Shown here one piece after another: positions 7,237 to 19,576 of a stretch of 27,321 bases of DNA. The stretch's first letter is position 1; every line of letters starts with the position of its first letter. Source of the stretch: a virus; the UHGV virus genome UHGV-0288412, one strand, 5' to 3'. The translations under genes and the position numbers were made by a program. Under the pieces are notes generated by a model. It ran no database searches, was not told where the DNA came from, and saw only the letters and a list, made by a program, of their open reading frames with translations.

Positions 7237-7796
7237 TATACATTCTCCACTAATTCGAATTTCATCTTGCCAATCTGGGCGATCTTCCAATCGATGTTTT
7301 CAGTTTTGAGAACAAATTCGCCTTCTACGTTTTGATACTTGATCACCTCACCCGCCAGGACGTTCTGACGCAAGTTAGGGAAGAGTTTCATTTCACCACC
7401 TGATTTCACATCTTCGGTGATCGTGTAGATTTTCTTGTGGTTCTCAAACTGGATGACAGTTCCCGCTTTCAGTGTTCCGGTGAAGTTGGAGATTCTCACC
7501 TTACGCCCACCGCGAGCAGTACCAGCAGCAGCCGTTACCATCTGGCGTACATCACCTGTATATTTTGAAAAGTAAGACAGTGGCACATTGAAAGGACGAC
7601 CAAAAAGGTGACGTGCTACAAATTCTTTTACTTCGTTAATATCCTGAGCCATGAAATTAGCTGTAAATTCTGCTTCATAAAAATGGATGCCAGTAAAGCG
7701 ACGCTGGAACTTACCGGAGATAGATTGCGCCTTGAAGAAAGGCTGTTTTGATTTAAGAGTAAAATCTGTGATTTTAATATTTTTGGATTTGAACAT
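7236..7796 (-). CDS. Minor tail protein / distal tail protein (gpM-position), 186 aa
   Basis: Directly downstream of the tape measure gene and coupled to the next gene; no specific motif recognised. Confidence 0.5.
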   Translation of the reverse strand: MFKSKNIKITDFTLKSKQPFFKAQSISGKFQRRFTGIHFYEAEFTANFMAQDINEVKEFVARHLFGRPFNVPLSYFSKYTGDVRQMVTAAAGTARGGRKVRISNFTGTLKAGTVIQFENHKKIYTITEDVKSGGEMKLFPNLRQNVLAGEVIKYQNVEGEFVLKTENIDWKIAQIGKMKFELVENV

Positions 7797-7846
7797 AGAA
7801 AAGCCCCCGTAGTTTTATGATTATTTATCACTATGGGGGCTTTTAA

Positions 7847-10273
7847 TTACATCTTACGACGCTGAACGTCTTCTATCGCCTGAGCAACAAACTTAGCGTG
7901 ACGTTTGATAGCATCCATGACCATCTTGTCTGAGCTATTAACGTTGCCGTTAATGTTCAAAGGCGCATTAACTTCAATCGGCTGAGAGTTGCCACCTGAT
8001 TTTTGAGCAGCAAGGAAGTCTTTCAAATCACCGTTAGTACGCTGATCAACTACTCGTTCACCCTTATCAAGCAACCATGTACCCTCACGCGGGATGTTAT
8101 CGATACCATCATGAGCCATACCGCTAACGTTAGTAGACTTGATGTTTGCGATGTTCCCCATGTTCTGAGAAACAGCCAATGCAGCAGCAGCGATCTTTTG
8201 TCCTGTGGTAACGTTGGTCGGATCGTTCCATGCATCGGTAGCAGCCGTCCACATGTTCACCGTCGCTTGTCCGATAGAGAATGCTTTATGAGCATTGAAA
8301 GCCATCTGCATAGCTTTAGTGTTTTCCTGCCCGAAGAGAGTCATTGCAGCAGCAAAACCGCCATACATATCATCGGCTATTGACTGTCGAGCATCAGCAT
8401 ATTTCTTCTCAATTGCAGCCATTCGTTTTTGATGGTTTTCATTGAGTTTTTCTAATGCTTCCATCCGTTTAGCCGGATCATTAATACCGTCAATCTTGAG
8501 TTTATCGGTCTTATAATCTTGTTCAGCATCCGATTTCTCTTTATCGATTGCATTAAATTTAGCAAACGGATTATTTGAGTCCTGATAGTCTAAGCTATTG
8601 GTCAACTGATTGGTTTTAAAACCATCCATTCCATGCAAAGAATCTTCAATCTGTGAATAACTTTGTTCGGTATCATTCACACGGCGCATATATTCTTCGT
8701 AGGAGATAGCCTTACCATCAAGTAACCGTTTATGGCTTTCTAACTCATTGTCCCTGATTTGTTGCAATTGTGTTAAAGCATTCAGAGCATCAACCGGATC
8801 AGCACCTAAGATCATTTTGTATACGTTTTCAGTATTCTGATCGATTAAGGATTGGCGTTTCGCGGCTGCGTCTTGCTGAGAGATTAAGCCCAGATCTAAA
8901 GCAGTATCCAAATCTTTCAAGCTGGCTTCTAACTGCTTGTTTTGAGAAGCAATAGACGCGGCGACTTGCCCTTGCAATTTAACATCAAGTGCATTCAGTC
9001 GCTTGATTGCATCCTCACGTTCTTTCTGTGCTTTTTCTGCGGCTTCCTTAGCCTTTTTAGCTGCCTCTTCCGCTTTCTTGCGCGCTTCTTCCTCGGCTTT
9101 CTTCTCGTTGCCAGACTTACCCAATGAAGCTGGTCGAGTTGGTGTAGTCGGGATAGTCAAATCACGGTTAGGATCTGCCTTGCGGGTTAGATGTTCCCCG
9201 TTATCGACAACAATCAGAGAGCCATTTTTCTTATAAGAATCACCAAAACGTTTCTTAAATCCTTCAACATCAAAGCCAGCAGTACGAGGATCGACACCAG
9301 CACCACGGATCGCGGCCTTTTCCCAATCTGCCAGATTATTCCAACGCTTTTCTTTATTGTACTTGTCAATAATCTTTTGAGCGTCTTTATGGTTGGTGTT
9401 AAGAATACCACCAGTTGCGGTCTTGCCTTCTTTATTCAGTCGATCTAATGCCCTGAATAGAGAACTCTTTTCCCAATCAATATTAAACCAGTCAAATAGC
9501 CAGTTTAAGCTATCAACCAAAGGACCAGTAATGGTCATGCCGACACCTTTCAGGTTATTTTCCAGCTTATTAATATTCTGAGAAAATTTATCATATTTTT
9601 TAGCGTTTTCTTCGGTGACGTTAACAGATTGATTCTGAATAGCGATCATCGCCTCTTGAGCACTATTATATTTCTCAAGCTGGCTGGTCATATGGCTTGA
9701 ATCACTGGATAAAGATTCCATCATGAACTTGATTTCAGCCATTGATTTTCCGGCTTTCTTCATGTCATAGAACACTTGGATCGCCGCTTTCATACCACCT
9801 TGCGGATCTGTCATGAAGTGAGCATAGTTTTCTAACTTAAGACCAACCGATTCTAAGTCATCAGCAATACCACCACCGTTAGCCCATGCATCACCCATTT
9901 TATCTAAGGTGTCTTTGTTGATATCACCAAATTTTTCAACTGTTAGGCCAGTGCCAGAAAATTCCTTTTCCAGTCTTTGAAGGGATTCAATCGAGAGTCC
10001 GGTCGCCTTAGATACTTCTGAATACTGTTTAACGTATTCCGCACCAGCTTTAGCGGCTGCAACCACTGCGGTCGCAACTAAGCCGATACCACCAGCAGCC
10101 AAACCAGCAGAGCCAGCGATCCCACGAAGAGATCCAGTCAAACCAGACAAGCCACCACCAAAATCAATACCACTTGCCTTTTCAGACAAACTATCGAGAA
10201 GGTCGGCGGCTTCACTGGTACTTCTCCTTAGACCTTTATTATCCCCTTCTATTGTTACTATATGTTTTGTCAT
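7847..10273 (-). CDS. Tail tape measure protein (808 aa)
   Basis: Long, Ala/Gly-rich N-terminus with Gly-rich hydrophobic stretch, extended charged coiled-coil segments (AEEEARKKAEEAAKKAKEAAEKAQKERE); lies immediately after the G/T chaperone pair. Confidence 0.8.
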   Translation of the reverse strand: MTKHIVTIEGDNKGLRRSTSEAADLLDSLSEKASGIDFGGGLSGLTGSLRGIAGSAGLAAGGIGLVATAVVAAAKAGAEYVKQYSEVSKATGLSIESLQRLEKEFSGTGLTVEKFGDINKDTLDKMGDAWANGGGIADDLESVGLKLENYAHFMTDPQGGMKAAIQVFYDMKKAGKSMAEIKFMMESLSSDSSHMTSQLEKYNSAQEAMIAIQNQSVNVTEENAKKYDKFSQNINKLENNLKGVGMTITGPLVDSLNWLFDWFNIDWEKSSLFRALDRLNKEGKTATGGILNTNHKDAQKIIDKYNKEKRWNNLADWEKAAIRGAGVDPRTAGFDVEGFKKRFGDSYKKNGSLIVVDNGEHLTRKADPNRDLTIPTTPTRPASLGKSGNEKKAEEEARKKAEEAAKKAKEAAEKAQKEREDAIKRLNALDVKLQGQVAASIASQNKQLEASLKDLDTALDLGLISQQDAAAKRQSLIDQNTENVYKMILGADPVDALNALTQLQQIRDNELESHKRLLDGKAISYEEYMRRVNDTEQSYSQIEDSLHGMDGFKTNQLTNSLDYQDSNNPFAKFNAIDKEKSDAEQDYKTDKLKIDGINDPAKRMEALEKLNENHQKRMAAIEKKYADARQSIADDMYGGFAAAMTLFGQENTKAMQMAFNAHKAFSIGQATVNMWTAATDAWNDPTNVTTGQKIAAAALAVSQNMGNIANIKSTNVSGMAHDGIDNIPREGTWLLDKGERVVDQRTNGDLKDFLAAQKSGGNSQPIEVNAPLNINGNVNSSDKMVMDAIKRHAKFVAQAIEDVQRRKM

Positions 10274-10276
10274 AAA

Positions 10277-10627
10277 TTACCCCGTTTGTGCGCTTCTGAG
10301 TTTCTCAAGCAAAGATGGATCGAACATGCTCAATGTTGCAGCTTTACGTTCTTCTTCTTTCTTGCGTGCAAGTTCTTCCATTTCTTCTTTAGTTTTAAAG
10401 AGTTTTTCTTCTCTAATTAACTGGAATTGGCTAGGCTTGAGTTTCTTTGCAGTTTCGCGTGTCATTCCTTGCGACGTCATATACATGGAATATTGCAACA
10501 TCGCATTCTGCATATCATGAAACGCGGGGCTTTGTGGTTCTAAGTAGGTGTCGAAAATGTATAATTTCCAAAACAGAGTGATTGGCATATTATCCATTTC
10601 ATCTTTACTAAGCCCCGATCTCATCAT
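10277..10627 (-). CDS. Tail assembly chaperone, T segment (expressed as a G-T fusion by -1 frameshift)
   Basis: ORF is in the -1 frame relative to the G-like ORF and stays open upstream to 10672, overlapping the last 5 codons of G; gene order matches lambda G/G-T/H. Confidence 0.55.
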   Translation of the reverse strand: MMRSGLSKDEMDNMPITLFWKLYIFDTYLEPQSPAFHDMQNAMLQYSMYMTSQGMTRETAKKLKPSQFQLIREEKLFKTKEEMEELARKKEEERKAATLSMFDPSLLEKLRSAQTG

Positions 10628-10656
10628 TTGCCGGAAATAGAAATTCAGAAGCGGGT

Positions 10657-10663
10657 TTACTTT
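10657..10663 (-). promoter_or_regulatory. Candidate -1 frameshift site A-AAG-UAA at the end of the G-like gene
   Basis: Minus strand reads GAG GUA AAG UAA; tRNA-Lys on AAG can re-pair on AAA in the -1 frame, and the following stop would slow the A site; the -1 frame then continues VNPLLNFYFRQMMRSG... into the T ORF. Confidence 0.45.
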
Positions 10664-10965
10664 ACCTCGTTTTCAATTACTGCCGGATCTTGCATCAATG
10701 ATGCTTGAGCAACCAAACCGATTAATTCACTGCGGACGTTAGTATACAGTGCCTTAACTTGTTCCATAGATTCAAATACTGGCTTACCGTCTTCATCTTC
10801 AATACAACGAAGAATCGAACGTTCATCACGGTCATCTTTATCGGTATTGAAAACATGTTCGTTAAATTCTTTTACTGACATAGGGCGAGCATAGAAAGTG
10901 AATCCACCGATGGTCAGAGATTCACGTTTCGGAGAAAGAGCTTTCAGCATTTCATTAATATTCAT
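10657..10965 (-). CDS. Tail assembly chaperone, gpG-like (102 aa)
   Basis: Small acidic protein immediately upstream of the T segment and tape measure gene; ends ...ENEVK-UAA. Confidence 0.55.
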   Translation of the reverse strand: MNINEMLKALSPKRESLTIGGFTFYARPMSVKEFNEHVFNTDKDDRDERSILRCIEDEDGKPVFESMEQVKALYTNVRSELIGLVAQASLMQDPAVIENEVK

Positions 10966-11007: not shown

Positions 11008-11514
11008 TTAAGAGATTTTCAAAGTCTGCTTAGTGCCAGTCTTCTTAATGTTGGTAAGGAAAGCAGCCGGAGGATTGCTTAACCAATAGTAATGAAAACC
11101 ACTTTGCATACTGTTATAAGGAACAGTGACAGCAGCACCACCCAAATTAACGGTTATATTCCCCGCTCTACCGTTCTGGAGATATACAGCCATAGTAGGA
11201 GTACCGCCATTGAATTGACCAACGATAACGCCAATCAGACGCCCTACGCCCACGTTTTCGGGGTTCTCCATAGATCCTTTACCGCGCATGTCAGTTACTG
11301 GATAGTTTGAAGCAGTTACACCCCAGTTATTACCCAATGAAGTAGACCACGCAGCAGTAGCTACAACCGTATCCATACCACGACCACACATCGCACTCAT
11401 GTTAGCTGGGCGACTAACCTTTAATGCGTTCATTGCTGCGCTCATCCATCGTTGACCAGTTACAGAAACAGCAGATGACCCGACCCAGCCAGGCTTATTA
11501 ACGACATTCGCCAT
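11008..11514 (-). CDS. Hypothetical Gly/Ala-rich protein (168 aa), probably tail-associated
   Basis: Clean ORF with GGAG Shine-Dalgarno, between the upstream terminator and the G-like gene; no motif recognised. Confidence 0.4.
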   Translation of the reverse strand: MANVVNKPGWVGSSAVSVTGQRWMSAAMNALKVSRPANMSAMCGRGMDTVVATAAWSTSLGNNWGVTASNYPVTDMRGKGSMENPENVGVGRLIGVIVGQFNGGTPTMAVYLQNGRAGNITVNLGGAAVTVPYNSMQSGFHYYWLSNPPAAFLTNIKKTGTKQTLKIS

Positions 11515-11527
11515 TTTGATTACTCCA

Positions 11528-11558
11528 ATAAAAAAGCCCCACCATTAAGGCAGGGCTT
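11528..11558 (-). terminator. Rho-independent terminator (copy A)
   Basis: Minus strand AAGCCCUGCC-UUAAU-GGUGGGGCUU followed by UUUUUU; a 10-bp stem with two G-U pairs. Near-identical to the terminator at 17364-17390. Confidence 0.7.
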
Positions 11559-11562
11559 ATAA

Positions 11563-11688
11563 TTAATCTTTAGCCTTGCGGCCTCGTTTTGCTGTGGCTT
11601 TCGCCGTAACTTCTTCTACTTCTGGAATCACCACCGCTTCATGTTCCGGCAGTGGTTCCGGTTCTGGTAAAGGAAGTTCTTCGTTAGT
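11563..11688 (-). other. In-frame 41-codon extension after the UGA stop of the 157-aa gene (candidate readthrough product)
   Basis: After UGA (11689-11691) the same frame reads TNEELPLPEPEPLPEHEAVVIPEVEEVTAKATAKRGRKAKD before UAA at 11563-11565; verified codon by codon. Confidence 0.55.
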
Positions 11689-12162
11689 TCATCCAGCGGT
11701 AAACACTTCCTGTTTCAGCGGAGCACCATCAACGGCAAAGGTAAACTCTTTAGTTACCACTTCTTCATCGCCACCGTTCATAGCAACTTTAGAAATGAAG
11801 CCGTTGTAAGCAATGCGAATACCAGTCTGTTTTCCGGCGTCAACATAATACTCTACTTTGATCTGGCAGCGAGTGCCGTCTTCGGCAGCTTTTGCGAGCT
11901 TCTCGTGTACCGCATCACCTGGGATGTAGTTAACGGTCAGAGTCAGATCTTCAACGTTCAGTTTACCAACCAGCTTACGGTTATACTGAGAAGAATACGA
12001 TTTGACTTCTACCGTACCGCGAGACAGTGAATATTCAGGAAAACCAGCACACTCTTTAATTTCTTCGTATGCTTCATCGGCAAGGTCGGTGTTAGTGGTA
12101 TCGGCGTGATAGAACAGACTTACCAGACCACCAGTAAAAATATCTTTGAATTGCTGAGACAT
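11689..12162 (-). CDS. Structural protein, possibly tail-tube-like (157 aa), ending at UGA
   Basis: Follows the fibre gene; pattern VGKLNVEDLTLTVNYIPGD...QIKVEY loosely resembles the core of the V-like protein at 15794-16627; ends VFTAG-UGA in the context GCUGGAUGAACUAAC. Confidence 0.45.
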   Translation of the reverse strand: MSQQFKDIFTGGLVSLFYHADTTNTDLADEAYEEIKECAGFPEYSLSRGTVEVKSYSSQYNRKLVGKLNVEDLTLTVNYIPGDAVHEKLAKAAEDGTRCQIKVEYYVDAGKQTGIRIAYNGFISKVAMNGGDEEVVTKEFTFAVDGAPLKQEVFTAG

Positions 12163-12219
12163 AGAATTACCCCTTAATTAAAATTGTTTATAACGGGGGA
12201 ACTAGTCCCCCGACTTTTA

Positions 12220-12561
12220 TTATTTAGTTGCTTTCAGTTCGGCAATTTCTTTCTGTAATGCTTCGATCTGTGCTTTATATTTGGCGTCCATTTCCTGCAT
12301 AGCCTTGATGATTAAAGCATTGACAGCAGAGTTAGAAATAGTCTTGATTGCTTCTGGATTTTCTGGATCATCGGTGGATTGAATACCTACTGCTTCCGGC
12401 AATACTTCTTCCAGATCCTGAGCAATAATACCTACTTCGCGTTTAATCACACTACGGTCTTTAAGAGATTTAACTTTATCGTAGGTGTAGACTTTCAGTG
12501 AGTTTACTTTCTCTAATGCGCCGTCCTGTAATTCTTCCTTGTTAATTTTCAAACGGGAGTC
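12220..12561 (-). other. Intramolecular chaperone domain of the tail fibre; predicted autocleavage at the S/D junction in RSDSRLK
   Basis: Conserved S-D-x-R-L-K-x-N motif at residues ~1052-1059, followed by a coiled-coil C-terminus (AQIEALQKEIAELK). Confidence 0.6.
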
Positions 12562-15500
12562 AGAGCGAATGTAAACATCGTTAAAGCTACCGTTACGACC
12601 TGCGGTAAAGTCACCAGCAGCGTTAAAGTCAAAGTTAGTATCATGAACATGGAGACGAACAAGAGCGTTACCGATAGTACCGCTAGGAACATGCACACCC
12701 ATTGCTGCAATGTGATATTTACCTTGATGGGTTGCTTTCCAGATGTTATGAGCGGAATCGGTTGATTGCTGGCAGTCGACCTGAATACCGGAAGCACGAT
12801 CACGCCAGCTAGCCCAACTACCACCAGCAACGCTACCACGAATAAGACCATTACCGCCACCGGATACAGTGCCCGTTTCAAGGTGAATCATCTTACCGCC
12901 GAATTTCCAGACTTCGGCTTGTTTCTCACCGCGCATACGCATAACACCAGCATCATCGCAGTACAACAGACCCAACTCTAAGCCGTTTGGATCTCTAAAC
13001 CATAAATGCTTGTTACCGCTTCGTTTAAATTCAATATCAGCACCGTTGATAGTGATATTACCGCCAGTGTGAATTGCTTTAGGCTTAACAGTACCGTTAA
13101 TGGAAAACTCGATTAATTCAGTACCCGGACCACCCGGTCGTTGTGTGTACCAGTGCCAACCGCTTTCATCAGCGCATTCGAATACTTGTTTACGAGCATC
13201 AGCACCCCATGCACGAATATTAAACGTTGATGTGGCGGTCCCCTTACCCCAACGAATTTGTCCAGCAGCTTCCAAATCACCGAAGAATTTAGTTTTAATC
13301 GCACCAGTTGCTAAAGTACGTTCAGTGGTGAAGTGTGCACCTTTGCTATCGTCAAGCTGTAGGATGTTATCACGAGCGTTATTACTATCGCCCCAATGGT
13401 TAAACCGGAAATAATCACGAGAATTTAATCGTCCAGCATCAAAGGTTAACATCCCATTACCGACATAAATGTCACCCGCAAAACGAGCAGCACGGCTATC
13501 TCTTTCGAGAACTAATGCACCTTCGTTACCATCACCACCTAACGTAACTTTACCCGTTGACAGGTCGTAAATGAATGGTCGGTTGCCGTTCCAACCACCA
13601 AATTTATCGTTTTCAGCAGTAGACAACAAATATACTTTTTGACCATCATTACGCCAGAATGCACCGTAGTTACCATAGATCATACGGAATGCGTTAGCGT
13701 ATGCAGCAACATATTCGCCGTTGGTGTATACAATTTTTGTTTTGCCAGTGGATAATGAAACCTGACCGTTCTCATCTAGACGTAATGAGTTATTACCTTC
13801 GGTTAATTCGTTTACTAGCTGCAACGTGTTAGTAGTTCCATCACCATAGCCTAGATAACCTTGACGGCGGTTAGCACCACTACGATAATCCATAAACTCC
13901 ATGTAGTTGCTTTGTCCGGTGCGTCGTTCCATTCGGATAGCATTATTGCCCTTAGTGAAAAGACGAACAACGGAAGTTCCGTTAGAGTCAATTCTTAATT
14001 TCTCGTCGGCATCAGTAGTACCCGTTGCTAGGCGATAGGTGCTACCTTCAACAGTTTCATGCCATATGGTCTCTACGGCTTGGCTACGGAATTTACGCAG
14101 ATATTTTTTAGCGCGTTCTTGTGTATTACTCAAACTTACAATATCGTAAGTTGCTTGTGAGTTATTATCAAAAGACAGAGTACCGCGTTTATTTTCAGTG
14201 TTAAACAGAGTAATAACTCGACCTTCGTTAACACCAGTAGACGGTTTAACGAGAGTTAATTCAGGCGTATCATACACATTTAAAGTCACATCAGCACTTT
14301 TACCGTACTCTACAGTTACTTTATCGGTATATTTGCGATATTTCACGTATACATCATAGTTATCGCCAGAAGTATTGACCGCAAAGGTTTCAAATTCATT
14401 ATTAGTATTTCGACGATAAGCTACAACGTTTACACCTTTCGGGTTTCCATTACCGGAACGGATAACAATTTCTACAATATCACACTGATCAGGACTATTA
14501 ACGTTATAACCATTCCCACCGAAAATACGGATGAAAAAGCCTCGACCACCTTGTGGAATTGTTGCCGTTGCCAGTTTAAAGTAACCAGCCGCATTTTCAC
14601 CAGTTGACATATGAACGGGTTTAGTGAACATCTGATCAACTTCGGCTTTACTATACACACCCAATTCAGTCGGAGTCGGCTTATCACCTTCGTGATACAT
14701 GCGGTAGCTGAATCGCTTATTACCATCTTTATCAAAGCCATAGGTTTTAACTTGAGATGAGCTAGACCCATAGTGGAACTCAAAACCGCGACCGTGTGCT
14801 TTACCGCCAGAATGAGGAATGTTAAGGATTAAGTTACCCCAACCTTCGGCATTGTTTGGACGGAATGCACCAAAATAATCAAGGTTACGAGCACCAGCAT
14901 CATCAAAATAGTTAGCTGTTTTGGTTAACAGATAGCCGTGATGGTAAGTGTTGGTATTCTTCTTGATGTAAGCAGCATCGGCACTACCTTCAATCGAATC
15001 AATTCGCTGGTTAGCTGCGGCAATTGCGGCATCAGTAGAAGATTTATTCTGGTCTACCTTGTTGTTAATTGCGGTATGGTTGCTATTAACAGTGCCAGTA
15101 AGATTGGTGATCTTCGTGTCGGCATCGCGTTTATTATTTGCTACGGTCGTTTCTATGGCTGATTTATTTGCTGCGACAGTATTCGTTAAGTTGGTAACGT
15201 TGGTATTAGTCTGATCAACTCGCGCATTAATATCTGTCTTGTTCTTGTTAATTGTCGCGTTGATAGTATCGCGGGTTGAAGTAATAGTCTGATTCAGTTC
15301 AGTCTTAGCAGCCGCCAGAGCGTTAGCCGCTTCGGTTTTATTGTTACCTACTGTGGTAGTCAAAGCATCAATTCGTTTGTTGGCTGCGTTATCTCCAGCA
15401 GTGATTGAAGCATTGAGAGTATCACGGGTAGAAGTGATAGTCTGATTCAGTTCAGCTTTAGCACTAGCCAGATTATCAGCGGCTTCTTGTTTGTTGGAAG

Positions 15501-15717
15501 CAATAACACGGTCAGTGTTGGTTTTGTTATTGTCTACTTTCGTATTCAGTTCAGCGTGTTTTTCTGGAGAAACACTAATTTGAACTACTGCGTTATTTTT
15601 ATCTTTGGTATACAGAACGTGATCAGCAAGGTTAATAGCCAATTCACCCTGTGATAATTGTTCCGGCGTTGGTTTTTTACCAGCCGTCTGTGTGCGTTTA
15701 AATTGGATTGATTGCAT
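12220..15717 (-). CDS. Long tail fibre with C-terminal intramolecular chaperone (S74-type autoproteolytic domain), 1165 aa
   Basis: N-terminus QFKRTQTAGKKPTPEQLSQGELAINLADHVLY is a recurrent fibre N-terminal motif; long N/T/A-rich coiled-coil region; C-terminal ~113 aa beginning SDSRLKINKEEL... matches the chaperone domain of T5 L-shaped fibre and endosialidases as I recall it. Confidence 0.8.
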   Translation of the reverse strand: MQSIQFKRTQTAGKKPTPEQLSQGELAINLADHVLYTKDKNNAVVQISVSPEKHAELNTKVDNNKTNTDRVIASNKQEAADNLASAKAELNQTITSTRDTLNASITAGDNAANKRIDALTTTVGNNKTEAANALAAAKTELNQTITSTRDTINATINKNKTDINARVDQTNTNVTNLTNTVAANKSAIETTVANNKRDADTKITNLTGTVNSNHTAINNKVDQNKSSTDAAIAAANQRIDSIEGSADAAYIKKNTNTYHHGYLLTKTANYFDDAGARNLDYFGAFRPNNAEGWGNLILNIPHSGGKAHGRGFEFHYGSSSSQVKTYGFDKDGNKRFSYRMYHEGDKPTPTELGVYSKAEVDQMFTKPVHMSTGENAAGYFKLATATIPQGGRGFFIRIFGGNGYNVNSPDQCDIVEIVIRSGNGNPKGVNVVAYRRNTNNEFETFAVNTSGDNYDVYVKYRKYTDKVTVEYGKSADVTLNVYDTPELTLVKPSTGVNEGRVITLFNTENKRGTLSFDNNSQATYDIVSLSNTQERAKKYLRKFRSQAVETIWHETVEGSTYRLATGTTDADEKLRIDSNGTSVVRLFTKGNNAIRMERRTGQSNYMEFMDYRSGANRRQGYLGYGDGTTNTLQLVNELTEGNNSLRLDENGQVSLSTGKTKIVYTNGEYVAAYANAFRMIYGNYGAFWRNDGQKVYLLSTAENDKFGGWNGNRPFIYDLSTGKVTLGGDGNEGALVLERDSRAARFAGDIYVGNGMLTFDAGRLNSRDYFRFNHWGDSNNARDNILQLDDSKGAHFTTERTLATGAIKTKFFGDLEAAGQIRWGKGTATSTFNIRAWGADARKQVFECADESGWHWYTQRPGGPGTELIEFSINGTVKPKAIHTGGNITINGADIEFKRSGNKHLWFRDPNGLELGLLYCDDAGVMRMRGEKQAEVWKFGGKMIHLETGTVSGGGNGLIRGSVAGGSWASWRDRASGIQVDCQQSTDSAHNIWKATHQGKYHIAAMGVHVPSGTIGNALVRLHVHDTNFDFNAAGDFTAGRNGSFNDVYIRSDSRLKINKEELQDGALEKVNSLKVYTYDKVKSLKDRSVIKREVGIIAQDLEEVLPEAVGIQSTDDPENPEAIKTISNSAVNALIIKAMQEMDAKYKAQIEALQKEIAELKATK
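15259..15472 (-). repeat. Imperfect direct repeat (~60 bp, two copies 154 bp apart) inside the fibre coiled-coil region
   Basis: gttgatagtatcgcgggttgaagtaatagtctgattcagttcag (15259-) against cattgagagtatcacgggtagaagtgatagtctgattcagttcag (15413-); encodes AELNQTITSTRDT(L/I)NA twice. Confidence 0.65.
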
Positions 15718-15793: not shown

Positions 15794-16627
15794 TCAATAC
15801 TCCCCGAAATCGACTCTATCGGTCTTAGCTACTGCGCCAATTTCGCTAGGTGTCGGTTTCTCATTGGTGGAATATACCTTGATCCATTCAGAACGACCGT
15901 TTTCCTGAATATTTCGGACACGTAAACGCGGTGCGCCAGAAGTATTACAGGTTAATTGCCATGCGCCATGCTCATTAGCTTGAAGGTGAATTAATGATGT
16001 GTCGGTTGAATATGGATTACCGCTAGCAGTTCCCTTGTAAGTTACGAAACGGTTTCCGGCTAATGCCTCGCTATCAATCGGACCCGTGAATGGATTTACA
16101 CCAGCACCCAAACCAAAATCACCCTGACGTAAGATCCGGCCTTCGGTAGCAATACCCCTTGCCAAAATCCCGCCATCTGGTTCAAGTTTAAATTCCAGTG
16201 TTACAGCTTTGTTATCGCTACCACGGGTTTTATGTGATGTGACGTAAGCATCATAGATGACATAGTAACCAGTGTTAGCAGCACTATAGCCAGAGTTAAC
16301 AACATAGAACATACGGAAGCGTAAAGGTGTTTTATCCTCTACCGCTTTCATCAACAATGCTTGATGTTCGTCATCCAGAACACGGTTTAATGTGAGTGTT
16401 GTTGGTTCCAGTCTACGATAACCAGCAAGTTTCCCCGTAGCGTCCTGATCGTACTCTTCCAGAGTTTCAATCTCTGTGGATTCGGTTAGCGTAGGGAATG
16501 CTGCGACGTTCTCAATAGAACTAAAGCTAGGATCGAAAAAGTCCGGCTGGCTATCGACCATAGTAGACACGGAGACTTCAACATGCGACCCCGTAAAAAT
16601 ATCTAAGTTATCATGCGTAATATTCAT
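15794..16627 (-). CDS. Major tail tube protein, lambda gpV-like (277 aa)
   Basis: EEYDQDATGKLAGYRRLEPTTLTLNRVLDDEHQALLMKAVEDKTPLRFRMFYV parallels my recollection of lambda V (ESYDDS...TATGQ...FTLAW...[20 protein letters not shown]); follows the U-like gene; C-terminal extra domain ending KPTPSEIGAV. Confidence 0.6.
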   Translation of the reverse strand: MNITHDNLDIFTGSHVEVSVSTMVDSQPDFFDPSFSSIENVAAFPTLTESTEIETLEEYDQDATGKLAGYRRLEPTTLTLNRVLDDEHQALLMKAVEDKTPLRFRMFYVVNSGYSAANTGYYVIYDAYVTSHKTRGSDNKAVTLEFKLEPDGGILARGIATEGRILRQGDFGLGAGVNPFTGPIDSEALAGNRFVTYKGTASGNPYSTDTSLIHLQANEHGAWQLTCNTSGAPRLRVRNIQENGRSEWIKVYSTNEKPTPSEIGAVAKTDRVDFGEY

Positions 16628-17363: not shown

Positions 17364-17390
17364 AAAAAAGCCCCACCGTTAGGCAGGGCT
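17364..17390 (-). terminator. Rho-independent terminator (copy B)
   Basis: Minus strand AGCCCUGCC-UAAC-GGUGGGGCU followed by UUUUUU; near-identical to copy A at 11528-11558. Confidence 0.7.
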
Positions 17391-17395
17391 AATTA

Positions 17396-17524
17396 TTATT
17401 CTTTAGTTTTACGTTGTTTTTTAACTGTGGCTTTCGCCGTAACCTCTTGAACTTCTTCTTCCTGAGATGGAATCAGATTTTCTTCCCCCAAATCGGGGGA
17501 AGGTTCAGAAGGTTCTACGCTAGT
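17396..17524 (-). other. In-frame 42-codon extension after the UGA stop of the capsid gene (candidate readthrough product)
   Basis: After UGA (17525-17527) the same frame reads TSVEPSEPSPDLGEENLIPSQEEEVQEVTAKATVKKQRKTKE before UAA UAA; verified codon by codon. Confidence 0.55.
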
Positions 17525-19531
17525 TCATTCAGCGGAGATGTGAAGAACTTTCAGAGCTTCCGGCTGAGTAACAACATAATCCAGGTCTACCCAGATACGC
17601 GGAACAATTGCGGACTGTGCACGGTAGGTCGTGTCGTCCATATCCAATTCCAGACCGCCCCACTCACCGATAGTAATACCGGAGAAGTCACCCAGAACGA
17701 TGTGGTCTGCCGGAATAACGCCAGAAGTAACTACATCGTAACCAGCCAGTTTGCCGTTTTCGATGATATAACCGGAAACGCCGTTATCTTTCAGGGTAGA
17801 TTCCAGTTCAGCAGCAGTTGCACCGCTCATCGCAAACTTGATCGCCTGAGCAGGAACGCCAGCGTCAGTCAGTGCTGCAATTTCTTTCAGGAAGTCTTTG
17901 TAAGAGAAAGCGGCTTTCTTAGTAACGCGACCACCGTCTACCAGTTGTTTAACCAGACCAGCCGGACCGCGAGCATTTTCTTTATCAGACAGAATCAGTT
18001 GTTCCAGTTTGATGCGAACAGCTTTGTTAATGTGATCAGTGATCAGGGTAGCGATGCCCGGAACAGTTTTCAGCGACTGACGGCTGATCGGGTTGCCACC
18101 AGCAAAAGTTTTCGGAGACAGTTTCACGTTCGCAAATTCAGCTTTGCTTTCCGGTGCAGCACCGTTTTCATCAACGAAGCCGAAAGCGTCAACGCTGGAA
18201 GCGGTCATTTTTGGAATAGCGGTCGGAGCATTCAAGCCACTGTAAACAGTCACACCGAGGCGGCCTAAAACACTCTGAGGCAACAGCATTTCTACATAGG
18301 ATTCGGTCAGCAGTTTTTCGTCGGTGATAGCAGTCAGATCGGCTTTGGTGTTACCAGCAGCAGCAGCACGCATAGCAGCAGCCGGAACGAATACAGAGCC
18401 ACCGCGAGCAGCACGACCACGCTGCATAGTTGCAGTAGCAGCCATTGCGGAATATTCAGCTTCGTTAGCACCCAGAGCAGCACCATCTACCAGAGAGCGA
18501 ATTACGTTGTTCAGGTCAAAAGTTTTTTCCATGATTTGTTCCTTATTAATTTGTTCGTTATTACGTTGAGCATTGGTAATGTTATTTAGTGCCTTAGTGC
18601 GGAATGCTTCCGGCGTCATGTCTTTAATTGCCAATGCGCGTTTTAATTCTTCGTCGTCAATATTTAGTTCCCGCGCGATCTCGCGGATTTCTAATTCGTC
18701 TTCTTCGGAACGTTCAGCCACTTCCTCGGTTTTTTCTTCTTCAACCGGAACGGCTTCACGTTCTTCTTTTACTTCTTCTGTTTCCCGAACAGTTGAACTA
18801 TCATCATCAACACTTTCAGGATGTTCAGCGTCTTTTCCGTCTTCGAGATTTTCATTTTCTTTATTCTCTTCAACTTGGCGCTCTTGAGTTTCTTCAACTT
18901 CCGATTCTTTATTTTCTTCTACCGGAGTTTCTTCAACCTGAGCGGATTCTTGTTCTTCTTTGATTTCTTCAATTTGTTCTTTAGTCATATCGCGTTTAGC
19001 CTCCAAATTAACTGTGATAGTATTTAGAGAGCGATTTAAACCGACCGTATCGTCTGCGGGAACGGTGACAAATGAGAGTTCATAGGGTGCCCACTTAGTA
19101 ACAATCAATTGCCCTTTGGCGTAATCGATGTGATATTCTTTAATGTCATAGCCGACAGAAATTTTTTCCATCGTACCTTCAATGACTTTATTACGAATAT
19201 CATTAGCCATAGTCCCATGCTTGGAGAACTTAACCAGAGCACGACCTACGTTATCCGCATCGATTCGAGCGTTACAAACGACACCAATGTGATTATCGAA
19301 ATTGTGATTGAACAGCAACGGAGCGTTATTATTCAGACGAGACAGATCAACCGCTTCCGGTGTATGTACCAGAATTTCATCTAATACCACCATTTCTTGA
19401 TTTTGCTCATCCCAGAATTGGCGCTGATAAGGCTGTTCACTGGAGAAAGCAATTTCAAATTCGTATTGATCGTTATGCCCTTCGTTAATAACTCCACCGT
19501 AACCGTTAAGATCGCGGCGAAATTTAAGCAT
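17525..19531 (-). CDS. Fused prohead protease (HK97/S78-type) - scaffold-like acidic linker - major capsid protein (668 aa), ending at UGA
   Basis: N-terminus PLLFNHNFDNHIGVV...GRALVKF...ISVGYDIKEY fits the S78 prohead protease pattern (catalytic His and Ser); central Glu-rich coiled-coil (EEIKEEQESAQVEETPVEENKESEVEE...); C-terminal ~370 aa capsid-like; follows the portal gene; AGGTGA Shine-Dalgarno. Confidence 0.8.
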   Translation of the reverse strand: MLKFRRDLNGYGGVINEGHNDQYEFEIAFSSEQPYQRQFWDEQNQEMVVLDEILVHTPEAVDLSRLNNNAPLLFNHNFDNHIGVVCNARIDADNVGRALVKFSKHGTMANDIRNKVIEGTMEKISVGYDIKEYHIDYAKGQLIVTKWAPYELSFVTVPADDTVGLNRSLNTITVNLEAKRDMTKEQIEEIKEEQESAQVEETPVEENKESEVEETQERQVEENKENENLEDGKDAEHPESVDDDSSTVRETEEVKEEREAVPVEEEKTEEVAERSEEDELEIREIARELNIDDEELKRALAIKDMTPEAFRTKALNNITNAQRNNEQINKEQIMEKTFDLNNVIRSLVDGAALGANEAEYSAMAATATMQRGRAARGGSVFVPAAAMRAAAAGNTKADLTAITDEKLLTESYVEMLLPQSVLGRLGVTVYSGLNAPTAIPKMTASSVDAFGFVDENGAAPESKAEFANVKLSPKTFAGGNPISRQSLKTVPGIATLITDHINKAVRIKLEQLILSDKENARGPAGLVKQLVDGGRVTKKAAFSYKDFLKEIAALTDAGVPAQAIKFAMSGATAAELESTLKDNGVSGYIIENGKLAGYDVVTSGVIPADHIVLGDFSGITIGEWGGLELDMDDTTYRAQSAIVPRIWVDLDYVVTQPEALKVLHISAE

Positions 19532-19576
19532 TTAATCACCTTTAATTAATTGGGGGCATTGCGCCCCCGTTGGTTA

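Follow-up and report, generated by a model that had tools for sequence, protein, structure and literature searches.

The window considered here, that is the whole 27,321 nucleotides (nt) of the virus genome UHGV-0288412, is the structural module of an uncharacterised Escherichia coli siphovirus prophage, and the genes concerned are all encoded on its minus strand. Two of them, the major capsid gene and the tail tube gene, end at a UGA codon after which the reading frame stays open for 42 and 41 codons, respectively. An earlier note on this DNA, made from the letters alone, had proposed that the capsid UGA is subject to programmed readthrough, and the present analysis followed up that proposal.

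The product of the capsid gene, a protein of 668 amino acids (aa), had been described in the earlier note as protease, scaffold and capsid in one, and the domain searches upheld this identity. Pfam matches to Peptidase_S78 (residues 40–162, E 2e-10) and Phage_capsid (residues 411–664, E 1.6e-25) are separated by an acidic, scaffold-like segment, and the protein matches the major head protein family PHROG 617 with an E of 3e-92. By these matches it is identified as an HK97-fold major capsid protein with an N-terminal protease-scaffold fusion, both domains being carried by a single polypeptide. The 157-aa protein matches PHROG 158 (E 1e-20); a Foldseek search with the AlphaFold2 model of a close homologue returned lambda gpV (7t2e and 8k36, E about 2e-6) as the best matches in the PDB, and the Pfam matches to TTP_11 and TTP_12 fell under their cut-offs. 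Based on the predicted tube-domain fold and on a gene order that puts it upstream of the tail assembly chaperones and the tape measure, it is assigned as a lambda gpV-like tail tube protein. The two genes and the features that follow their stop codons are:

17528..19531, minus strand: fused prohead protease-scaffold-major capsid gene, 668 aa (Pfam and PHROG 617)
17525..17527, minus strand: capsid UGA, in the context UGA-ACU, the proposed readthrough site
17399..17524, minus strand: 42-codon in-frame extension of the capsid gene, with an acidic Pro/Glu linker and a Lys/Arg tip
17393..17398, minus strand: tandem UAA UAA closing the capsid extension
17369..17390, minus strand: intrinsic terminator 3' of the capsid extension (9 bp, 6 of them GC, with a T-run; second-best hairpin of the scanned region)
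11692..12162, minus strand: tail tube gene, 157 aa, lambda gpV N-domain-like (PHROG 158 and Foldseek)
11689..11691, minus strand: tube UGA, in the context UGA-ACU
11566..11688, minus strand: 41-codon in-frame extension of the tube gene, paralogous to the capsid extension
11563..11565, minus strand: UAA closing the tube extension, with a second in-frame UAA at 11557–11559
11534..11558, minus strand: intrinsic terminator 3' of the tube extension (10 bp, 6 of them GC, with a T-run; best hairpin of the scanned region)

The capsid open reading frame (ORF) ends ...LHISAE, followed by TGA and by 42 in-frame codons that translate as TSVEPSEPSPDLGEENLIPSQEEEVQEVTAKATVKKQRKTKE. The succession described in the earlier note, in which LHISAE-UGA is followed by 42 open codons, UAA UAA and a terminator, was found as claimed. 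So was the paralogous extension after the UGA of the 157-aa gene, which ends ...FTAG and continues, frame open, for 41 codons (TNEELPLPEPEPLPEHEAVVIPEVEEVTAKATAKRGRKAKD), one codon fewer than the capsid extension. The basic tips of the two tails read KKQRKTKE and KRGRKAKD. The nucleotide context GCTG(A/G)ATGAACTA and the peptide EVTAKAT(V/A)K, which the two modules had been said to share, are both present in the window. An exact 19-mer, GTTACGGCGAAAGCCACAG, occurs at 17425–17443 and at 11592–11610 and nowhere else in the window, where chance would be expected to produce none. The two 3' regions thus have TGAACTA, the 19-mer and the terminator in common, and their middle parts have diverged; judged from these sequences, they are paralogous. 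A lone stretch of 42 open codons after a stop would arise by chance about 13% of the time, by a rough estimate, and other genes of the window are followed by similar or longer runs. An isolated run of this length is hence unremarkable, and it is the comparison with relatives that decides.

The capsid region is 90–96% identical in 55 of 5,426 complete E. coli genomes, which marks the element, at the level of sequence, as an E. coli prophage family. A lysogen of the family is E. coli Z0117EC0005 (NZ_CP098223, prophage near 1.92 Mb), and some IMG isolates contain both modules. A megablast search of the capsid region against 50,697 GenBank phages gave zero matches, and the sole match of 25 kb of the window among GenBank phages was a T-even-like fibre gene; no close phage isolate has been sequenced. 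Viral contigs were scanned for modules with the capsid protein and with the 19-mer, and further modules were taken from an E. coli genome and from metagenomes. The set comprises 48 unique modules of viral-contig or E. coli origin, to which the metagenomes added about 10 that were new. Species-representative genomes scanned with the capsid alignment yielded two distant loci only, which were uninformative for the module.

The comparison with relatives that the earlier note had put forward as a check revealed no in-frame stop and no frame-breaking indel, and the stop itself was always TGA-A. Frame 0 is open in all 48 modules and in the additional ten or so, up to a distal stop beside the terminator, and frames +1 and +2 contain 1–6 stops each. 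The capsid extensions are 28, 33, 42, 43, 44 or 45 codons long and the tube extensions 36, 39, 40 or 41. Since any length counted to an in-frame stop must be divisible by three, indel phase was measured between landmarks that are independent of the frame. The distance from the UGA to a GGC-GAAA-GCC hairpin was 41, 62, 71, 80, 86 or 89 nt, in every case 2 modulo 3, and the distance from this GNRA hairpin to the terminator stem was 48, 51, 54 or 57 nt, in every case 0 modulo 3. All eight landmark length differences are therefore multiples of 3, for which our own estimate of the chance probability is about 1.5e-4. The codon log-likelihood, calculated with the phage's own codon table, was +0.36 bits per codon in frame 0 as opposed to -0.85 and -1.06 in the other frames. 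All 37 unique extension peptides consist of an acidic body (net charge -3 to -9) and a basic stretch in the last dozen residues (net +4 to +6), and this pattern persists across variants that differ in about 50% of their sequence. A capsid lineage only 38% identical bears the same TGA-A module in frame. The distal stop is TAATAA in all capsid modules of the window's own lineage and TGA TAA in part of the 38%-identity lineage. Taken together, the paired, homologous and frame-keeping layout and its conservation in relatives go, as far as sequence comparison can tell, far beyond chance.

These observations bear on the alternative that the roughly 130 nt between UGA and terminator are an untranslated, structured 3' region, whose conserved hairpins would serve the stability or processing of the two late mRNAs of highest abundance, or their protection from Rho or RNases. 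The open frame would then be what is left of an ancestral coding tail after truncation by a nonsense mutation. Such a history leaves unexplained why eight length differences should all be in phase and why some 58 variants should lack a stop in frame 0 with the other frames closed. It likewise gives no reason for the codon usage of frame 0 or for a charge pattern that is retained across variants about half of whose sequence has changed.

Further evidence came from the stop codons. TGA followed by A terminates the upstream gene in every module (48 and about 10), within a window in which 23 of the 27 genes end with TAA; the TGA users are the capsid gene, the tube gene, the gene of a 277-aa protein and one small plus-strand gene. 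Module-free capsid homologues at 32–49% identity all end with TAA, except the frame-disrupted L125 and the Edwardsiella-type L113 and L076. Similarly, tube orthologues of at least 82% identity all possess TGA-A and the extension, and tube alleles or homologues of at most 61% identity in the loci all end with TAA without an extension. The 277-aa gene ends TGA-T with a TAA three codons on, and its stop alternates between TAA and TGA among the same genomes; there has thus been time enough for stop codons to drift, yet both module stops are unchanged. This invariance of the weakest stop and of the A at position +4, with TAA elsewhere and a drifting stop in a neighbouring gene, is another feature for which an untranslated 3' region offers no explanation. 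The two most highly expressed virion genes keep the stop with the least efficient termination in E. coli. According to published reporter and proteome data, no stop in E. coli leaks more than TGA, the residue inserted there is mostly Trp, and the leakage varies with context, temperature and nutrients, being greater in the cold (PMC11126739). By comparison of the modules, stop identity and context are both leaky and conserved. The local context given in the earlier note stood in part only: UGA-A-(C/A)-U is robust across relatives, and the full 13-mer varies upstream of the UGA. The codon before the stop may be GAA, GAG, GAC, GAT, GGA, GGT, GCT or TCT, and the 13-nt form GCUG(G/A)AUGAACUA was accordingly dropped.

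The 277-aa protein (window 15794–16627, minus strand) is itself a second tube-like protein, with a match to PHROG 158 at an E of 1e-8.

The RNA downstream of the UGA is structured. Both window extensions fold better than shuffled controls, with z-scores of -4.26 (capsid) and -3.24 (tube), and the elements of the fold are:

17515..17524, minus strand: 10-nt spacer between the capsid UGA and the first paired base, with the same spacing in all variants
17503..17514, minus strand: 5' strand of the capsid closing helix, AACCUUCUGAAC, which pairs with 17441–17452
17482..17502, minus strand: inner hairpin of the capsid module, CUUCCCCC-GAUUU-GGGGGAAG, 8 bp, in long capsid variants only
17441..17452, minus strand: 3' strand of the capsid closing helix, GUUCAAGAGGUU
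17429..17438, minus strand: GGC-GAAA-GCC tetraloop hairpin within the capsid 19-mer
11667..11678, minus strand: 5' strand of the tube closing helix, AACUUCCUUUAC, beginning 10 nt past the UGA
11608..11619, minus strand: 3' strand of the tube closing helix, GUAGAAGAAGUU
11596..11605, minus strand: GGC-GAAA-GCC tetraloop hairpin within the tube 19-mer

The closing helix starts exactly 10 nt past the UGA; in the minimum free energy folds this holds for most modules, and in the aligned strands for each of the 25 distinct strand pairs. Between the two strands of the helix lie 26–74 nt of variable sequence, and its 3' strand ends 2 nt before the invariant GGC-GAAA-GCC hairpin in every variant. Covariation was assessed on a trimmed alignment of the 25 distinct strand pairs, the controls being a slid partner strand and 500 shuffles. 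In the helix, 76% of the cells are paired, compared with 28–46% when the partner strand is slid, and 8 of the 12 pairs change on both sides. The covariation score was 0.312 against 0.141 +/- 0.018 for the shuffles, none of the 500 reaching 0.312. A conserved base-paired element is thus indicated by covariation at a fixed short distance 3' of the UGA. Relatives with ...KK(V/A)GRPPKAK tails (e.g., L004, L026 and L046) have an additional, third hairpin, placed after the GNRA hairpin and before the distal stop; it also covaries, GGUGG...CCACC being replaced by GGCGG...CCGCC with a Val to Ala change and a synonymous change at Pro. Stimulators of frameshifting, and in eukaryotic viruses those of readthrough, are characteristically structures that lie a short and constant distance 3' of the recoding site (PMC5009743, PMC9553062). 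The helix downstream of the UGA may be a true stimulator of readthrough, a suggestion from the alignment to which we would give somewhat less than an even chance.

A hairpin about 10–11 nt past a UGA is also reminiscent of selenocysteine, as the selenocysteine insertion sequence (SECIS) of E. coli has a similar spacing, and Trp occupies the position of the UGA in one public protein record (P0001). The UGA might be read as selenocysteine, by a dedicated suppressor tRNA, or as a sense codon of an altered genetic code. At their apices, however, the hairpins are entirely different from one variant to another, which leaves no conserved loop for SelB to bind; an apical SelB-binding loop and bulge 3' of the UGA were looked for, and the variants' apical regions proved to be unrelated. 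Rfam gave zero matches at the gathering threshold, and at E <= 5 only noise driven by the terminators. No tRNA was found in the window and no suppressor in the relatives. The Trp record derives from a gene call that read UGA as Trp, the DNA having TGA, and the host is E. coli. We consider a special decoding of this kind hardly credible. ARAGORN produced 91-nt antisense tRNA calls in some relatives (L081, L083, L087 and others), about 600–750 nt downstream of the capsid gene end and antisense within a coding region, with none in the window; they are probably false positives, given that the anticodon changes between loci (Gln, Glu, Lys).

Several results weigh against translation of the extensions, and they are collected here. 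The ratio of non-synonymous to synonymous polymorphism (pN/pS) is 0.66 for the long capsid extension and 0.40 for the tube extension, compared with 0.22 and 0.10 for the respective gene bodies. Thus, of the two properties that the earlier note had expected of the post-UGA frame in relatives, the frame does stay open, and the bias towards synonymous substitutions is only weakly present. For the short capsid extension pN/pS is 0.13, on few sites. Third codon positions are not enriched among the variable sites of the extensions, and purifying selection on the peptide itself appears to be weak. In view of this weak signal from the ratio of non-synonymous to synonymous change (dN/dS), we relied on other measures, namely whether the frame and the phase of indels are kept, which stop is used, and how codons and charges are distributed. 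In the VTAKAT block, three changes are non-synonymous and none is synonymous, and the block adjoins or overlaps the conserved RNA hairpins; for these two reasons an explanation at the nucleotide level is at least as good, and the conservation of the block, which appears to be of nucleotides, is better explained by RNA-level constraint or gene conversion. Codon usage and charge pattern do speak for coding, and the EVTAKAT block, which the earlier note had taken as a sign of selection on a translated product, is less well explained in that way.

The compensatory changes in the closing helix point in the same direction. In the short capsid variant, a U-A to C-G change of a pair is accompanied by Leu to Ser and Val to Ile substitutions, and in a tube variant two U-A to A-U flips are accompanied by Leu to Gln and Glu to Val. 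At such sites, where compensation alters the residues, the alignment indicates that RNA pairing outweighs peptide sequence. The first two pairs of the helix are A-U, so that the effective spacer may be 12 nt, and we know of no precedent for a non-SECIS hairpin that stimulates UGA readthrough in bacteria. Within this prophage family there is also an alternative tube allele whose TAA runs straight into a terminator, from which it follows that the tube extension is dispensable in nature. Finally, no sense codon was found at the position of the UGA among the hits of searches in a collection of 5.8 billion protein clusters, for which the queries were the tube protein joined to W and the extension, a profile of the extension, and the capsid C-terminus joined to W and the extension. 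The lack of sense-codon fusions fits a need for low-level readthrough, and it fits no translation equally well.

The sole full-length fusion match in those searches, P0001, was rejected as a gene-call artefact. This 198-aa tube protein with Trp at the UGA position comes from the 842-bp ENA contig L075, whose DNA has TGA and does not translate to the query under table 11; the gene caller had read UGA as Trp, presumably under genetic code 4.

Much of the above could be accommodated by the untranslated 3' region. The covariation data are its main support as well, since the closing helix covaries strongly, residue-altering compensatory changes included, and the third hairpin of the GRPPKAK-type tails covaries too. 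The 19-mer is conserved at the nucleotide level with zero synonymous variation, the fold z-scores are -4.3 and -3.2, pN/pS is high, and public protein hits contain no sense-codon fusions. Furthermore, G5/C5 hairpins are present just upstream of both genes, which suggests bracketing at the level of the mRNA. They occupy 19551–19569 and 12194–12212 of the window (mRNA-strand sequences ACGGGGGCGCAAUGCCCCCA and CGGGGGACUAGUUCCCCCG), where short intergenic gaps immediately precede the capsid and tube start codons. The two genes are bracketed by structures on both sides, and this arrangement may reflect mRNA processing or stabilisation. With the unexplained phase, stop, codon and charge patterns set against these points, we consider it unlikely that structure alone accounts for the modules.

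The combination of a weak constraint on the peptide with a strict constraint on the frame raises another possibility, namely that readthrough is real and that what is selected is ribosome traffic. Ribosomes that reach the distal stop would occlude the terminator stem and tune transcription of the downstream head-completion and tail genes, or the fate of the mRNA, with the peptide as a by-product. The distal stop does lie close to the terminator stem, 2 nt before it in the capsid module and 4 nt in the tube module, and the module is always accompanied by its terminator. Any gene before a terminator has its stop nearby, however, so that proximity says little, and the effect of a few per cent of ribosomes on termination could be no more than marginal. 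A by-product would also not be expected to keep its charge architecture through many substitutions, and the constitutive fusion of similar basic tails in related lineages speaks for a role of the peptide itself. Selection for traffic is in our view quite improbable.

An independent small gene, or reinitiation, would require a start within the extension. Within the capsid extension, a 33-aa ORF has been annotated from the TTG of ...DLGEEN..., and the public record P0018 lists MGEENLIPPQEEESQTVKAKATAKKVGRPPKAK as a hypothetical protein; in the Edwardsiella-type relatives, a GTG that overlaps the capsid UGA (GTGA) opens the frame of the tail peptide. The TTG, which is absent from the other variants, is buried inside the 8-bp G/C hairpin and lacks a Shine-Dalgarno sequence. 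In-frame start codons are missing altogether from the short capsid variant, and in the tube extension, which lacks ATG, the candidates are limited to an internal GTG GTG pair for which no ribosome-binding site is evident; both extensions are nevertheless open from the UGA on. Moreover, the region between the UGA and such a start would be unconstrained, yet it changes only in multiples of 3. We therefore regard a separate gene as very improbable and have rejected P0018 as a real gene; it is an annotation artefact of the module.

Tails of a similar kind are acquired by other routes in related lineages. Capsid homologues with direct fusions end in short Ala/Lys-rich tails (...PAEAKAAKQ*, ...PAEVKAALKASA*, ...ETRKAK* and, in Salmonella, ...ETRVKK*). 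Tube homologues end ...VVGSRK* or, in Edwardsiella, ...NVIPEAVAAKEK*, which resembles the ...VVIPEVEEVTAKATAK of the extension. In the lineage of phage DCP80 (L001, L115, L118 and L121), the capsid gene ends with TAA and a tail of 20–35 residues, again rich in Ala and Lys, is encoded in the -1 frame; in L001, which is DCP80 itself, the region concerned is 7756–7878. A run of A residues lies in the short overlap, as an in-phase A_AAA_AAG in L121, GTA_AAA_ACG in L115, GAA_AAA_CAA in L118 and GAA_AAG in DCP80. We take the heptamer of L121 to be the slippery sequence of dnaX. A hairpin lies 5–7 nt past the TAA in L001, L115 and L121, the three loci in which it was read from the sequences. This capsid tail is probably a candidate for programmed -1 frameshifting, similar to T7 10A/10B. 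In the Edwardsiella-type loci L076 and L113, the capsid gene ends ...KQG-TGA (L076 3787) with the GTG overlapping the stop, and a peptide homologous to the extension, VIPTGREEVSVKSGRKPKTDN, is found in the -1 frame; the tube gene of the same Edwardsiella phage (L076 10001–10528) carries the fused tail ...NVIPEAVAAKEK*. This capsid end may be a decayed module, a frameshift or a case of coupled reinitiation. Three routes would thus serve capsid proteins (direct fusion, probable -1 frameshift and proposed UGA readthrough) and two tube proteins (direct fusion and proposed readthrough). These parallels suggest that the capsid and tube proteins of this family have the tail as a feature at the protein level, its dose being controlled differently by different lineages.

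On balance, we favour the reading that the extensions are translated by selected readthrough of the UGA, and put its probability, on the sequence evidence, at about 0.7. We infer that most ribosomes would terminate at the capsid and tube UGA and that a minority would insert an amino acid, likely Trp. Insertion by the near-cognate tRNA-Trp is usual for UGA in E. coli, and it would yield the junctions ...SAE-W-TSVEPSEPSPDLGEENLIPSQ... in the capsid protein and ...FTAG-W-TNEELPLPEPEPLPEH... in the tube protein. These ribosomes would translate 41–42 more codons up to a strong UAA, which in the capsid gene is the tandem UAA UAA. The leak would be built by three features, the UGA as the weakest stop, the A that always comes next, and the stable helix 10 nt downstream; the helix would act as a readthrough stimulator in the manner of 3' structures in eukaryotic viral readthrough.

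The products would be minor capsid and tube subunits with a disordered appendage, in which an acidic Pro/Glu tether of about 15–30 residues holds a cationic tip (+4 to +6). A flexible extension had been suggested in the earlier note, and the AlphaFold2 model agrees, as it shows a folded tube domain followed by an extension with a predicted local distance difference test score (pLDDT) of 36–53 and no secondary structure; the extension is hence predicted to be disordered. By analogy with lambda gpV, SPP1 gp17.1* and T7 gp10B, the tails would project from the outer surface of the tail and the head. In lambda gpV, T5 pb6 and SPP1 gp17.1*, the part after the tube domain projects outward (PMC8718954), and peptides joined to the C-terminus of gp10B, which T7 makes by frameshifting, are exposed at the surface of the capsid (PMC3444042). 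It is on the latter precedent that an outward-facing C-terminus of the capsid protein is suggested. The role of the tails would be weak electrostatic adhesion to anionic polymers of the cell surface, or some other accessory function at the surface; adhesion is the most economical guess, made by analogy, and the least secure step of the proposal.

A more tentative version, which we would sooner bet against than for, is that the module is a portable readthrough cassette, composed of UGA-A, the 10-nt spacer, the stem, the GNRA hairpin, the ORF of the charged tail, a stop and the terminator. Recombination would have appended it to different structural genes, as it occurs in two unrelated capsid lineages and on the tail tube. 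Its helix would raise UGA readthrough in E. coli, as a prokaryotic, non-SECIS counterpart of the 3' stimulators of eukaryotic viruses, and head and tail would bear one and the same cationic tether sub-stoichiometrically, in an amount that possibly depends on temperature or nutrients.

The remaining genes of the minus strand place the two modules in context. Their order is large terminase, portal, the 668-aa protein, a 96-aa head-tail attachment-like protein, a 140-aa protein, the 277-aa tube-like protein, a 1165-aa fibre, the 157-aa protein, a gp38-like adhesin, two tail assembly chaperone-like proteins and the tape-measure protein. The fibre (window 12220–15717, minus strand) has Gp34_trimer and Peptidase_S74 domains, and at the DNA level it shares 76–83% identity with gp37, the gene for the distal long tail fibre in RB49-like T-even phages. 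The adhesin is encoded at 11008–11514 (minus strand), so that the tube gene and its module lie between fibre and adhesin. The chaperone-like ORFs (10277–10965, minus strand) encode 102 aa with a Phage_TAC_13-like match and 116 aa with a Phage_tail_T-like match; they are about 30 nt apart and do not overlap.

Should selected readthrough be correct, the modules would constitute a conserved case of it in the structural genes of a double-stranded DNA phage, with a candidate RNA stimulator acting in cis. The covariation pattern already points to mutations worth making, and with E. coli as the host, virion proteomics, reporter assays and work with RF2 variants are routine. That a single charged appendage is reached by several routes also amounts to a natural experiment on why some virion decorations must be sub-stoichiometric. 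There is a consequence for annotation too: the extended products are omitted from the gene calls behind the public protein hits and from the RefSeq record that we examined, an annotation of one E. coli relative by the Prokaryotic Genome Annotation Pipeline (PGAP) in which both genes end at the UGA and the extensions are unannotated.

In the literature searched, stop codon readthrough is described for RNA phages and plant viruses, and no description was found of stop codon or UGA readthrough in the capsid or tail genes of tailed phages. To our knowledge, and as far as we found, the A1 protein of Qbeta (Allolevivirus) is the only naturally selected readthrough of a stop codon in bacteria or phages besides selenocysteine insertion. 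It resembles the present case in that the major coat gene of an E. coli phage ends in a leaky UGA, in-frame readthrough of which gives a minor subunit that is extended at its C-terminus; decoding by the near-cognate tRNA-Trp is expected there. Unlike here, Qbeta is a single-stranded RNA phage whose coat fold is unrelated and whose extension is folded and about 200 aa long. The present phage is a double-stranded DNA siphovirus with an HK97-type capsid and a disordered tail of 28–45 aa, its module is also found on the tube gene, and a covarying helix lies 10 nt downstream.

Leaky stops with a short spacer and a conserved paired element in the readthrough ORF are likewise known from RNA viruses of plants and animals, including the coat protein readthrough domain (CP-RTD) of luteoviruses and the signals of the alphavirus and murine leukaemia virus (MuLV) types. 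The extended coat protein is there a minor component of the virion (PMC9553062, PMC5009743). Those signals differ in operating with eukaryotic ribosomes and release factors and through structures unrelated in sequence, and the helix of the present modules is likened to them in a putative role only. A resemblance of another kind concerns the AT-hook (Pfam PF02178), as some capsid variants end ...AKKVGRPPKAK with a GRP core flanked by Lys and Arg. This candidate was rejected: the match, at 14.2 bits (E 0.039), is below the 17.4-bit cut-off and confined to the variant tail, and there was no hit for the tails of the window itself.

Recoding at the 3' end of a gene, with a minor longer form incorporated beside the major one, is shared with T7/T3 gp10B, Lactobacillus A2, the Cps and Tsh proteins of Listeria A118/A500/PSA, and SPP1 gp17.1*. 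In T7 gene 10, the extension is followed by a terminator. These phages use -1 or +1 frameshifting, and their extensions are mostly folded, Ig-like or FN3, and not common to head and tail genes, in contrast to the UGA-A with its helix and to the homologous short charged tail on both capsid and tube described here. In the Listeria phages, the capsid and tail genes of one phage are both recoded (PMC5009743, PMC8718954). The closest system by mechanism is hence Qbeta A1, and by biology the long capsid and tail forms derived from frameshifting. What would be new, as judged from the sequences, is UGA readthrough in a double-stranded DNA phage, a single short charged module on head and tail genes and in two unrelated capsid lineages, and a covarying helix at a fixed 10 nt from the stop.

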